Assembly: GCF_013177435.1 (NCBI RefSeq)
Contig: NZ_CP053627.1
Span: 1,020,001 to 1,052,000, forward strand
Direction of reading: 5' to 3'
Length of the DNA: 32,000 nucleotides
DNA from: Xylella taiwanensis
GTDB taxonomy: Bacteria > Pseudomonadota > Gammaproteobacteria > Xanthomonadales > Xanthomonadaceae
Position 1 is the first letter of the stretch; each line of letters opens with the position of its first letter. Of the stretch, positions 26,061-29,645 are shown in pieces. The notes under the pieces are model-generated. The model ran no database searches and was not told the DNA's origin. It worked only from the letters and a program-made list of their open reading frames with translations. The position numbers and the translations under genes are program-made.

Positions 26061-29000
26061 TCACGAGTCGCTTCGTTGCACAGGATCATCAATGACCCTC
26101 TGGCGTAAACTTTTCAGCATGGCGTCCCGCTCGTCTGCAAGCCCGCCACCACGATAGATGAATGACGTTTCATGCCGGGCGTATTGCGTGTCGCGCCTGG
26201 CACTGAACCAATTGAACGATCCAACACAAAACACATCATCGTCCCCGATCACCATTTTGCTGTGGATTCTGACAACGAAGGCCACTTGAATCCCCGCATC
26301 ACGCAATGTATCGGTCGCCGTCAGCAGTTCATTGATCTTGTTTCCGCAGGTGTCATTGTCCGTATTGAATTCCGGATCGGTGTAGATCGTGACCTGCACG
26401 TCACGCCCCACGGCATCCCGCATCGCTGCGAAGGCGCCGATGTCTTCGATGCGCTTCAGGCTCATCCATGGAGTCACGATATGGATTTCGCGTTGCACGC
26501 GCTTCAGCGTCTCTAACAAAAAGGTATCGTGCGCTGGTGCGTCTCGCAGTACATGGAGATCTGTACTGGGAACTTGCAAATCTTTGCGGACCAGATGTTC
26601 GAAAGAAAGCGCGTTGCTGGGATCCCGAAAAAGATAGTCAGCCAGCAGGCCGCGCGGCGTCATCTTCGATGCCGACGCGAAGACATCCATATCTCCAAAC
26701 ACCAAAAAAGTATTTTTTGCGCGCGAAACCGCCACATTCAGCATGCTTGGACGATTGTCGATGAAGCGGCCGTCCGCATGCTTGCTATACACCGGAGAGA
26801 AGATCACCACAGGCCGTTGCGCGCCTTGCAAGGAATGCATTGTGCCAACGATGGTCCCTTCCTTTTCGGGGCTGACGTTGATTCCCACGAGACGGCACGC
26901 CTGCGAAATCGCATCTACCTGCGCACTGAAAGGTGTCACGATGCCTACGATGTGATGCAGTGGTTGCCCATAGTTCGCTTGCAGCGCATCCCGGTGCTTT
27001 GCAAGCCACGCGGCGATGGTTTCTGCCTCATGCATGTTGTGCCGGCTCCTGCCACTGCTTTTCTGGCAAACACCGTGGATGTGGAGGTATCCCAGGGCCG
27101 GCCACATATCGCCCTTGTCGAAGGCTTCCGCCTTCGACCCGCGCTTGGGGATGAGTTTGCCGCGATAGCACAGCGCATTGCAGTAGCTGACAATTTCATC
27201 AAAGCAGCGATGGTGCTCGTACAGAAACATGCCACGTGCCAGCGCGGGATCATAGTGATATCGGCTCAGCATTTGGGCGATCTGCATGACACTGCCTGAA
27301 GCAGCAGATTTTCCAGTCTTGCAAAGACGCTCGTAGGCCTCTTGATCCCCTTTTTCAGCAAGCAGCTTGGCACTGATCAAGTTGCCGATATCGATGCTGG
27401 CTGGGACCGACCAGATCGGCTCGATCTGCATGTCGTCGCCGATGACCAGGGCTTTCTTGCTGAGCGCAAATGAGGCTCCTGCGACTTCTGGAAGCACTTG
27501 ACTGGCTTCGTCGACGATCAGCAGATCTGCAAAGTCATAGAGGTAGTTGGAGACAAAGCCCGGTCCATCATGCTGGTAAACCCGCATTTTTTGCGGAAGC
27601 ATGAAGAACGTCGAGACAATACAGGGCGTTAATTTCATCCGTCGCCGCCAGCGCTTTTCTATGAAAGAACGTTCCTTCTTATGGCGCTCTTCATCCAGAT
27701 TCGGCAAGAGCGCTTGCATGTCTAACAGCCAGCGCCCTTCCCAGTAGTGGGTGGTCAGTAGAAAGATCTTGAAACGGATCTGCATGTCGGCGCGCGACTC
27801 GCAGTCCGCAATGGATATGTGGCTTGCCGCGTCCGATAGATCCAGAGGCGCCAAAGCGGCCTGCCATTTCCCCATGTAGAACTGTTCGGCGTGCAGCACA
27901 GCTTCGCCGCGCTTGACACACCACTTGTGTTCCTTGAGCGTTTGATCGAATTGACGGGTGATACCTTTGAGAGACGCATCAATCTGGCGGATGGTCTCCC
28001 AGGCCCCTTGTGCGTGATAAGACGGCCAGATCGGCTTCAAAAACAGGCGTGCCAGGCGCAGGCGCTTTTGGGCGACAGGAGGCAGCCAAGAAAAAAAAGC
28101 GTAAACGACAGACTCTTGCGTACGATAGTGCTCCCAGCGTGTGACCACGTCATCGATCAAGCGCTTCTCGGTCTCCGTGTTGTCCAGTTGTTTGCGGCGT
28201 CGCGTCATCGTGGCAGCCGGCATATCCCCCAACTCCACTCGAACCGCATCGCGCGCACCACTCAGGGCTGACCACGCCTCCTCAATGGCGGCAAGTGTTG
28301 CCGCTTCTTTCCGAATCGCCTTCTGCAAAGCCTCGACGGCAGCCGCGACACTGCGTGACTCAGGCGCGATCTCTGGAAATGCTACCGCTGCTGCACGTAA
28401 ATAAGCCTGCTGTGCCTCAGTAACATAAGCGGCTGATTCCACAGCATCGAAAAACTCCTCGGTTTGGTACTTTTCTGAAGCTTTAGCCTCTTGTTTTGCG
28501 GAAGGCAGGAAGGCACCGAAACTCTTGATGTTTGGCAGCCAACGTCCCGCGAAAGGGCCATCGCCTGTTGCGAAATCATGTCCGAACGCATCAATGATGT
28601 TGGTCACCGCCTGATTCGTCGTCGAAGCAGCCACAATGACCGGCGGCTCCTCATGTGCGAGGGCCGCGTGAGCCCACAGCGACGCCACAGCCGATAACAA
28701 CAGCGTGGTTTTCCCAGTACCGGGAGGGCCATTGACCGCAAGAATCTCCCCCGCTTTGGCGGCCATCAAGTGTGTCAGGGCATCGCATTGTGCCGGCGTT
28801 GCAGGGAACGCATTGCTGCCATGTGCGAGCCGTTGGGAAAACCCCGCATGCGGCGGTAAACAAGGTTCAGGTGCAGCGATGTCGGTGCTGGCATAGCGTT
28901 CGAACAAGGGCACCTGTGGTGTATGGCGGCGGAGATGGTCGTATAAAGCGAGGATATGCCCACTGGAGAACGATTCTTTCTTGGCAAGGTAACCATGTTT

Positions 29001-29645
29001 GGCAAGCGTGTAATGCTCGTCGGGTCCAGGCCAGCCGCCACCGATCTGCTCCAGCAGCCGATCGCAGCCCGCCAGAAAATCTACCCACTGCCGATCGAAT
29101 TCGAGATTGCTCAATGGGTCCGCATCATTCCCCATAAAAGCGATTCCAGGCACAGGGTGTGCCGTCAGGAACGCATCCTGATCAGACACGCAGCCAATAG
29201 AGAAATGTCCGCGTGCTAAAGGCTCCAGAATGTCGCGAGGGACCAGCGTCCGGGTTAATGGATAGATCCTGCCATCGCGGGCCAGCAGCGCCAATGCAAC
29301 GATGGGCGTCACGATAGCGGGTGTTCCAATATGCTGCGGCGTGCCATGTTCGAAGGGCAGGGTGTAGACCTTGGGTCGGATGACTACTTCGACCGCCTGT
29401 AACTGTTCGGCGTCTTTGCCGAAGCAGGCATCGACGATGTTGCGGCTTGCACAACCACTTGCCAAGTGTTCCTGAGAAAGCTCCCAGAATGCTGAAATAT
29501 GACGACCATCAAATGCTCCACGGTCTGTTTCAGCATCTGCGAGCGAATGACGCCAATAGCTTGCGTAAGCGGAAGAGCGTGCCTGCATATTCTCATCAGT
29601 CCTTATTAGGCGTGGAGGTATGGTGTTGCCTGCCGATAGCGGCAC
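26061..29645 (-). CDS. SF1 (Upf1/DNA2-like, AAA_11/AAA_12-type) helicase fused to a C-terminal PLD-family (HKD) nuclease domain; Mokosh type II (MkoC)-like domain content
   Basis: The ORF is 1194 aa. Walker A is VNGPPGTGKTTLL (nt 28704-28730) and Walker B is LLIVDEASQV, followed by VIGDDMQIEPI, IVGIVTPFSAQV, VGTMHSLQGAQRPVVIFS and MLNVAVSRAKNTFLVFG. The single HKD motif is HSKMVIGDDDVFCVGSFN (nt 26211-26264), matching HxKx4Dx6GSxN. The track start is a GTG at 29645. A more likely start is the ATG at 29588 (MQARSS), 11 nt after AAGGA, giving 1175 aa. Confidence 0.8.
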   Translation of the reverse strand: MPLSAGNTIPPRLIRTDENMQARSSAYASYWRHSLADAETDRGAFDGRHISAFWELSQEHLASGCASRNIVDACFGKDAEQLQAVEVVIRPKVYTLPFEHGTPQHIGTPAIVTPIVALALLARDGRIYPLTRTLVPRDILEPLARGHFSIGCVSDQDAFLTAHPVPGIAFMGNDADPLSNLEFDRQWVDFLAGCDRLLEQIGGGWPGPDEHYTLAKHGYLAKKESFSSGHILALYDHLRRHTPQVPLFERYASTDIAAPEPCLPPHAGFSQRLAHGSNAFPATPAQCDALTHLMAAKAGEILAVNGPPGTGKTTLLLSAVASLWAHAALAHEEPPVIVAASTTNQAVTNIIDAFGHDFATGDGPFAGRWLPNIKSFGAFLPSAKQEAKASEKYQTEEFFDAVESAAYVTEAQQAYLRAAAVAFPEIAPESRSVAAAVEALQKAIRKEAATLAAIEEAWSALSGARDAVRVELGDMPAATMTRRRKQLDNTETEKRLIDDVVTRWEHYRTQESVVYAFFSWLPPVAQKRLRLARLFLKPIWPSYHAQGAWETIRQIDASLKGITRQFDQTLKEHKWCVKRGEAVLHAEQFYMGKWQAALAPLDLSDAASHISIADCESRADMQIRFKIFLLTTHYWEGRWLLDMQALLPNLDEERHKKERSFIEKRWRRRMKLTPCIVSTFFMLPQKMRVYQHDGPGFVSNYLYDFADLLIVDEASQVLPEVAGASFALSKKALVIGDDMQIEPIWSVPASIDIGNLISAKLLAEKGDQEAYERLCKTGKSAASGSVMQIAQMLSRYHYDPALARGMFLYEHHRCFDEIVSYCNALCYRGKLIPKRGSKAEAFDKGDMWPALGYLHIHGVCQKSSGRSRHNMHEAETIAAWLAKHRDALQANYGQPLHHIVGIVTPFSAQVDAISQACRLVGINVSPEKEGTIVGTMHSLQGAQRPVVIFSPVYSKHADGRFIDNRPSMLNVAVSRAKNTFLVFGDMDVFASASKMTPRGLLADYLFRDPSNALSFEHLVRKDLQVPSTDLHVLRDAPAHDTFLLETLKRVQREIHIVTPWMSLKRIEDIGAFAAMRDAVGRDVQVTIYTDPEFNTDNDTCGNKINELLTATDTLRDAGIQVAFVVRIHSKMVIGDDDVFCVGSFNWFSARRDTQYARHETSFIYRGGGLADERDAMLKSLRQRVIDDPVQRSDS

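Follow-up and report, generated by a model that had tools for sequence, protein, structure and literature searches.

Mokosh type II has been defined, tested and validated as an anti-phage system consisting of a single gene, whose product, MkoC, carries a COG1112/Upf1-like superfamily 1 (SF1) helicase N-terminal to a phospholipase D (PLD) nuclease, and its homologues in Escherichia coli include a yjhR-type protein (10.1101/2022.05.11.491447). In the homologues tested, the ATP-binding motif and the HKD residues of the nuclease were both required for defence. The purified E. coli protein (EcMokosh II) is a monomer of ~138 kDa by mass photometry, the modelled monomer being 132 kDa; on a substrate panel that did not include RNA it cleaved only single-stranded DNA (ssDNA) targets and nicked plasmid DNA, and in a panel of 11 phages it protected only against the ssDNA phage (10.1101/2025.07.10.664194). 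Here we analyze a window of 32,000 nucleotides from the chromosome of Xylella taiwanensis (NZ_CP053627.1, positions 1,020,001 to 1,052,000), to which all coordinates below refer, and we find that an open reading frame (ORF) on its minus strand is very probably mkoC, encoding the sole protein of a Mokosh type II anti-phage system in a chromosomal defence hotspot. The IleS protein encoded in the window is 100% identical to that of X. taiwanensis. Residues of motifs, model parts and substitutions are counted from the ATG at 29588.

The ORF at 26061..29645 (minus strand) is present in the window as a single chain of 1194 codons, as a sequence-only reading of this DNA had described it, and a stop-free run of that length has a chance of ~4e-21 given the base composition. 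The same reading had suggested Mokosh type II (MkoC), a suggestion that hinged on a match to the Mokosh profiles, and had left the order of the domains open. The PADLOC MkoC profile (PDLC03924) aligns to the protein without a break and from end to end (E=0, 1347.5 bits; protein residues 20–1183 in the 1194 numbering, profile positions 1–1135 of 1136), and the domains follow the published definition, with the helicase first and the PLD domain last (10.1101/2022.05.11.491447). The MkoA profile reaches only the RecA2 half (residues 707–1004, 2.5e-31) and the MkoB profile only the PLD part (1.8e-20), with DrmC at 6e-4. NCBIfam contains no MkoC model, and its partial matches (PLuB, ProA, IGHMBP2 and Hhe helicase) all fall far under the cut-offs. 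No MkoA or MkoB partner adjoins the gene, which is flanked by an RTX-repeat gene and by broken prophage DNA. Two other assignments were rejected: Mokosh type I, as helicase and PLD nuclease are fused in one ORF and a Pfam scan of the protein gives no kinase domain, and an E. coli allele, as megablast with this locus had no match in a set of 5,426 complete genomes of that species.

Every helicase motif quoted in the sequence-only reading is present: GPPGTGKTT at residues 287–295 (28704–28730), with the Walker A Lys293; VDEASQ, which is Walker B or motif II, at 692–697 (27498–27515), with Asp693 and Glu694; GDDMQIEP (motif III) at 717–724; TPFSAQ at 885–890; SLQGAQRPVVIFS at 919–931; and VAVSRAK at 952–958, motifs V and VI spanning SLQGAQRP...VAVSRAK. 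The DEASQ sequence is what we take to be the motif II form of Dna2. Near the C-terminus, HSKMVIGDDDVFCVGSFN at residues 1109–1126 (26211–26264) supplies the HKD residues His1109, Lys1111, Asp1116 and Asn1126, and with exactly one HxKxxxxD motif and one PLDc_2 domain in the protein the description of a single perfect HKD was correct. Pfam places AAA_11 (294–353), AAA_12 (806–986, 6.9e-19) and PLDc_2 (1043–1147, 4.8e-9) in that order, these being the three families proposed for checking; AAA_19, AAA_30 and PLDc (7.8e-5) also matched, and the first ~280 residues gave no Pfam match. The catalytic residues (Lys293, Asp693/Glu694 and His1109/Lys1111/Asp1116/Asn1126) are intact and conserved across the family, the HKD residues being at least 90% conserved among MkoC proteins.

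The full-length AlphaFold2 model, computed from the family alignment of 91 sequences, has a mean predicted local distance difference test score (pLDDT) of 87.1 and a predicted template modelling score (pTM) of 0.81, and divides into five parts: residues 1–262, 263–376, 377–651, 652–990 and 991–1175. In the PDB, Foldseek matches are confined to helicases of the Upf1-like SF1B type (E 1e-18 to 1e-11), led by senataxin/Sen1, Aquarius, Upf1, Ighmbp2, Dna2, ZNFX1 and coronavirus nsp13, with a probability of 1.00 and target-normalised TM-scores of 0.43–0.57 for Upf1, Ighmbp2 and Sen1. A profile search of the PDB by sequence finds senataxin, Dna2, Upf1, SMUBP-2 and Sen1 at 1e-9 to 1e-6, so that sequence profile and fold agree on the Upf1/Dna2-like helicase proposed earlier. 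As modelled, the helicase part is of the Upf1-like SF1B type, with two RecA domains, SF1 motifs I–VI and an insertion in RecA1. In the PDB copies searched, neither the family profile nor Foldseek found an MkoC structure, and the PLD domain alone had no match among PDB sequences at E<=10.

Between the Walker A Lys293 and the Walker B Asp693 lie 400 residues, in agreement with the sequence-only reading, which had placed a largely helical insert of about that length there. Residues ~377–651 of this segment, rich in Ala, Leu, Glu and Arg, are predicted to form long helices (414–453, 457–491, 503–520, 533–578 and 593–627, mostly with pLDDT >90), and the insertion is the least conserved portion of the helicase.

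An N-terminal domain of ~300 residues without recognizable relatives had also been singled out, and the fold search proposed for it was carried out here. Residues 1–262 modelled alone reach a pLDDT of 80.9 and a pTM of 0.73 (AlphaFold2), and no similar fold reaches significance in the PDB (best E 0.37, TM 0.15) or in BFVD (best E 0.05); the top BFVD match, at that E value, is an uncultured myovirus 'AAA domain protein'. When 21 diverse N-terminal fragments were searched against Pfam at E<=5, the only matches were to P-loop families, in fragments that run into Walker A. The lack of matches therefore stands for Pfam, PDB and BFVD, but the domain is not an extra one: because the MkoC profile covers the N-terminal ~260 residues, they are not an addition to the family architecture. 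An exhaustive phmmer search with residues 1–262 against 1.84 billion cluster representatives found only 198 clusters; the domain is at the N-terminus of the match every time, and no other architecture occurs among the matches listed. Among the 150 listed, the longest proteins have ~970–1280 residues, and the shorter aligned ones are truncated fragments, several of which continue into the Walker A sequence AVNGPPGTGKT. Pro95, Arg104, Gly106, Arg118, Leu121, Pro123, Asp138 and Trp168 are invariant in the domain. Judged by these sequence comparisons, residues 1–262 are a standard, family-specific part of MkoC proteins.

Homologues number 1960 in a collection of 5.8 billion proteins, and the best 120 are mostly ~1165–1190 residues long with the same Pfam content. 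Among these 120, X. fastidiosa is closest (68% identity), followed by Xanthomonas, Stenotrophomonas, Frateuria, Pseudomonas and Burkholderia, down to ~47%. Full-length homologues occur on 44 plasmid records and are essentially absent from complete phage genomes, and a scan of GTDB representative genomes gave only three relatives, at 42–43% identity. When 91 sequences are aligned, conservation reaches 90% or more in 337 columns, which are found all along the protein, in the N-terminal region as well as in Walker A, DEAxQ and HSK...D...GSFN. On this evidence the X. taiwanensis mkoC is an ordinary, previously uncharacterised member of an already described family.

The family also has a clade of relatives of ~990 residues that lack the PLD domain and end right after the helicase, matching MkoC profile positions 1–972 of 1136. 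One of these, from Cardiobacterium hominis (6001–8976 of the locus examined), is 56% identical over 85% of the query, and the next gene there encodes a protein of 545 residues with a weak FAD/NAD-binding signal. An effector swap in the PLD-less relatives was considered and no case was found, the downstream C. hominis gene having no PADLOC match.

The sequence-only reading had left the start codon between GTG 29645 and ATG 29588, and of these the ATG holds and the GTG does not. The true start is almost certainly ATG 29588, because the PADLOC MkoC profile begins at that residue, because Met1 is nearly invariant across 90 homologues, because in the nucleotide alignment it coincides exactly with the start annotated for X. 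fastidiosa mkoC, and because AAGGA stands 11 nucleotides upstream of it, while no Shine-Dalgarno-like sequence was found ahead of GTG 29645. The 64 bases directly upstream are 74% identical to X. fastidiosa at the nucleotide level (66 alignment columns), and identity falls to ~40% further upstream. A reading frame through this leader is not common to the two species, being interrupted by one-base indels, and the leader is non-coding. It is probably the ribosome-binding site and a promoter-proximal region of mkoC, and it may be conserved as a regulatory or leader sequence; a structured RNA was ruled out (RNA fold z = -0.43), and a scan around mkoC found no sigma-70 consensus promoter site. A small upstream ORF was likewise rejected as a conserved partner gene, since it lacks conservation at the protein level and indels break its frame. 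The AT-rich upstream region described earlier is borne out, with 47.9% GC over 29650–30300 vs 57.1% for the whole window; a terminator hairpin of the RTX gene is seen in the sequence at ~30270–30295, and part of 29653..30315 is missing in X. fastidiosa, where it appears as alignment gaps.

The syntenic X. fastidiosa mkoC (68% identity) lies directly downstream of the RTX-repeat gene, and because the synonymous divergence (dS) of mkoC in this species pair, 0.84, is comparable with the 1.26 of ispH, the mkoC genes of the two Xylella species are orthologues. Pairwise ratios of nonsynonymous to synonymous divergence (dN/dS), which average over both lineages and would hide a recent relaxation in one of them, are 0.25 for mkoC overall, 0.14–0.15 for the helicase core (0.15 for the first part of RecA1, 0.14 for residues 652–990), 0.25 for the N-terminal domain, 0.37 for the helical insertion and 0.44 for the PLD domain, compared with 0.034 for ispH. 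The gene is thus under purifying selection, though this is much weaker than on the housekeeping gene, as is often described for genes of immunity. The ratio of 0.25 also shows that the N-terminal domain is functional.

The gene stands at the end of a variable slot that adjoins tRNA-Thr(CGT), the cargo of which differs between the two Xylella species (Table 1). In X. fastidiosa the tRNA likewise follows ispH (17444–17519 of the locus examined), the mkoC slot ends at tRNA-Thr(CGT)-ispH-lspA, and its cargo comprises a PDC-S06-like AAA_13 protein together with one of 601 residues. A second copy of the 3' end of tRNA-Thr, as an att-like direct repeat bounding an island would show, was sought and not found. 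In X. taiwanensis the slot carries a type VI retron gene pair that is apparently complete as judged by its two coding sequences; Rfam over the window reports tRNA only, with nothing at the retron (no msr/msd RNA). On the other side of the tRNA the Qat system looks truncated or decayed, as the minus-strand ORFs downstream of QatB, where QatC and QatD would be expected, are all of 62 residues or fewer. The description of mkoC as intact amid decayed phage genes holds downstream, where the capsid gene is fragmented, but not upstream, where the RTX-repeat gene is intact. In X. fastidiosa, too, mkoC has the RTX/HCBP gene as its conserved neighbour upstream; there the gene product reaches 1046–1377 residues, and the gene follows repeated pairs of small genes for 90 and 205 residues. 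The tRNA-Thr locus behaves as a defence hotspot, of which mkoC is the stable member.

Table 1. Coordinates of the putative mkoC gene, its predicted parts and its neighbours in the window
Feature	Position	Strand	Evidence or remark
QatB	1232-2092	(-)	intact; PADLOC 9e-130
QatA	2089-4020	(-)	intact; PADLOC E=0
AbiTii-domain protein, 314 aa	4805-5749	(+)	between Qat genes and uvrA; Pfam 8e-35, PADLOC 7e-38
tRNA-Thr(CGT)	19213-19288	(+)	after ispH; one edge of the variable slot
Type VI retron RT_VI	19874-20836	(-)	PADLOC 8e-68
HTH_VI, 105 aa	20784-21101	(-)	overlapping, upstream of the RT; PADLOC 9e-27
Decayed prophage remnant, ~5 kb	~21100-26060		no long ORF
Phage major-capsid gene, split over several frames	23885-24713	(+)	68% nucleotide identity to Ralstonia phage phiRSP; Pfam Phage_capsid on one fragment
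Putative mkoC coding sequence	26061..29588	(-)	1175 aa + stop, 130.8 kDa; ATG start at 29588
C-terminal PLD-family nuclease domain, residues 991-1175	26064..26618	(-)	HSKMVIGD...GSFN; Pfam, PADLOC
Rest of RecA1 and RecA2, residues 652-990	26619..27635	(-)	Pfam AAA_12; PDB profile and Foldseek matches
All-helical RecA1 insertion, ~275 aa, residues 377-651	27636..28460	(-)	between motif Ia and Walker B; AlphaFold2
First part of RecA1, Q-motif region and Walker A, residues 263-376	28461..28802	(-)	Pfam AAA_11, AAA_19, AAA_30; G287-T294 invariant
MkoC-specific N-terminal alpha/beta domain, residues 1-262	28803..29588	(-)	AlphaFold2 domain model
Conserved non-coding leader	29589..29652	(-)	directly upstream of the start codon; AAGGA at -16 to -12
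AT-rich intergenic region	29653..30315	(-)	between RTX-gene terminator hairpin and mkoC leader; GC 0.48
RTX/HCBP-repeat gene, intact	30316-31944, on past 32000	(-)	internal ~500-555-bp tandem repeats, 80-92% identity

Based on the E. coli homologues, an anti-phage function is predicted for X. taiwanensis MkoC. On infection, its helicase would load on single-stranded nucleic acid and translocate with ATP, presumably 5'->3', the direction in which Upf1-like SF1B enzymes move. The most likely substrate would be ssDNA replication intermediates, the alternative being phage RNA or RNA/DNA hybrids. The helicase may then feed or position the strand for the PLD domain, which would cut it via a phospho-histidine intermediate. 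In Nuc and Zucchini, one HKD motif per chain makes up half of a canonical PLD active site, and two chains form the site; because the single HKD of MkoC is likewise half a canonical site, cleavage would probably require that the PLD domains of two molecules come together on the substrate. The requirement for dimerisation stated in the sequence-only reading has to be qualified: the single HKD speaks for it, but purified EcMokosh II is monomeric by mass photometry (10.1101/2025.07.10.664194), so that any PLD dimer would have to be transient or substrate-induced. Recognition of the substrate or trigger, or autoinhibition of the nuclease in uninfected cells, may most plausibly be sought in the N-terminal domain and the helical insertion. 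The sequence-only reading had suggested a sensor role for the N-terminal domain, which is speculative. We tentatively consider, as a possibility on the weaker side, that this domain recognises infection (a phage protein or a particular nucleic-acid end) or gates the nuclease via PLD–PLD dimerisation; in that case its fold would be a new one for a sensor, and would account for the discrimination between phage and host by a helicase-nuclease of only one protein.

A number of observations weigh against reading this gene as a working Mokosh type II defence of the kind outlined above. Phage resistance by Mokosh II has been published only for E. coli homologues. A constitutive PLD dimer does not fit the monomeric state of EcMokosh II in vitro, and the preprint is inconsistent on the activity itself, the text describing robust activity at all concentrations and the figure legends cleavage only at 1 uM (10.1101/2025.07.10.664194); the version in the legends would fit a PLD site built from two molecules. 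The PLD domain, with its dN/dS of 0.44, has the highest ratio of the parts of mkoC. The protein also departs from the family consensus at 20 of the 337 conserved positions, which ranks it fourth of the 91 sequences (median 10), and this excess could stem from a modest loosening of constraint in a part of the genome where several genes are broken. Among the substitutions are G696S in motif II (Gly in all 90 others), R268C beside the invariant Gln267, E924Q in motif V, and T719D; nine of the 20 are unique to this protein, and none affects a known catalytic residue.

Four other explanations bear on how the gene is to be read. The protein could belong to the same family and have RNA as its target, the helicase unwinding phage transcripts or RNA/DNA hybrids and the PLD domain cutting them, in parallel to MOV10L1 and Zucchini/PLD6. 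The closest solved folds are indeed RNA helicases (senataxin-ssRNA, Upf1-RNA, Ighmbp2-RNA and Aquarius), and homology of the Mokosh domains with MOV10L1 and PLD6 has been reported (10.1101/2022.12.12.520048), but in the only biochemistry available ssDNA was cleaved, plasmid DNA was nicked and defence acted on an ssDNA phage, the substrate panel being without RNA (10.1101/2025.07.10.664194), and Dna2 and Ighmbp2, of the same helicase clade, act on DNA. We regard an RNA target as rather unlikely, and such a target may coexist with ssDNA cleavage. That the gene is an intact-looking relic without a defence function, drifting towards a pseudogene as its neighbours have done, is improbable. Its neighbours are broken (the capsid gene is in pieces, and no ORF of QatC size follows QatB), the 20 substitutions at family-conserved sites exceed the median of 10 and nine of them are unique, and the exact protein is missing from the 5.8-billion-protein collection, where the best match is 68% identical; yet the ORF is free of stops over 3.5 kb, dN/dS is far below 1 (0.25 overall, 0.14 in the helicase core), all catalytic residues are kept, G696S need not be disabling if DEASQ is also the motif II of Dna2, and the start, ribosome-binding site and leader are conserved with X. 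fastidiosa.

A role in housekeeping or plasmid maintenance, as a Dna2-like helicase-nuclease of repair or replication, would agree with the structural likeness to Dna2, which is also a helicase-nuclease fusion, and with the homologues on conjugative plasmids. We think it highly improbable, in view of the different fold (PD-(D/E)XK) and N-terminal position of the Dna2 nuclease, the patchy distribution of the family over Proteobacteria and plasmids, the location in a variable tRNA-linked slot beside other defence genes, a rate of nonsynonymous relative to synonymous change ~7x that of IspH, and the anti-phage validation of the family (10.1101/2022.05.11.491447). It is equally hard to credit that MkoC needs a neighbour, the type VI retron or the small upstream ORF, as part of a multi-gene system. 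The complete retron VI gene pair does lie ~5 kb away in the same slot, and both Xylella species have small ORFs that overlap the upstream region; against this, Mokosh II was defined and tested as a single gene (10.1101/2022.05.11.491447), the genes from tRNA-Thr to mkoC are wholly different between the two species, the upstream ORF is not conserved as a protein and is broken in frame by indels, and ~5 kb of broken prophage DNA separates the retron from mkoC.

With the gene read as a single-gene Mokosh type II system, one more such gene enters the defence inventory of X. taiwanensis, the plant pathogen that causes pear leaf scorch, a point of interest should phages be considered for the biocontrol of Xylella. 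The residual interest is family-wide and concerns ~540 residues of every MkoC, namely the orphan N-terminal domain of 262 residues and the helical insertion of 275. Both modules are conserved and under purifying selection, and they are obvious places to seek the trigger of Mokosh II and its discrimination of self from non-self.

Compared with the described systems, the X. taiwanensis protein is closest to Mokosh type II: the match to the MkoC profile is full-length, including the N-terminal ~260 residues and the helical insertion, the mass is 130.8 kDa vs 132 kDa for the EcMokosh II model, and the boundary between helicase and PLD domain falls at residue ~990, vs A995/L996 in the E. coli constructs (10.1101/2025.07.10.664194). 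It differs in its Xylella host and in the lineage-specific G696S, R268C, T719D and E924Q; its closest listed homologues are 68% identical, the E. coli protein itself being outside the comparison. Mokosh type I has the same two enzymatic modules, but divides them between two genes, one for MkoA, a helicase that frequently bears a Ser/Thr kinase domain, and one for MkoB, in which the PLD part stands as its own protein, and the MkoA profiles miss the N-terminal domain, the Walker A region and the helical insertion of the protein studied here.

The eukaryotic Upf1-like helicases (Upf1, senataxin/Sen1, Ighmbp2, Aquarius and MOV10L1) share the fold of the helicase core (Foldseek E 1e-18 to 1e-13) at only 10–13% sequence identity, and Zucchini/PLD6 shares the single-HKD type of PLD domain. 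The pairing of helicase and nuclease has been noted before, and the analogy with the piRNA pathway drawn in the sequence-only reading is supported by the reported domain homology with MOV10L1 and PLD6 (10.1101/2022.12.12.520048). Unlike MkoC, the piRNA and Upf1-like proteins are separate polypeptides with other accessory domains and without the MkoC N-terminal domain, and their targets are RNA, whereas EcMokosh II cleaves ssDNA. Dna2, too, joins a Upf1-like SF1B helicase to a nuclease with activity on single-stranded DNA. That nuclease, however, lies at the N-terminus, belongs to the PD-(D/E)XK type and contains an Fe-S cluster, and Dna2 serves replication and repair rather than defence. In Druantia type III, DruE is a defence helicase with a C-terminal PLD-type nuclease, and its activation is coupled to an oligomeric change, from an autoinhibited dimer to a monomer on DNA; DruE needs the partner DruH (10.64898/2026.05.13.724313). 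DruE has many extra domains and two PLD-like domains per chain, whereas MkoC is an SF1B, stand-alone protein with one HKD, and EcMokosh II is monomeric when purified; the oligomeric switch of DruE, which also involves a partner protein, runs in the direction opposite to the one proposed here for MkoC, in which two molecules would come together on the substrate.

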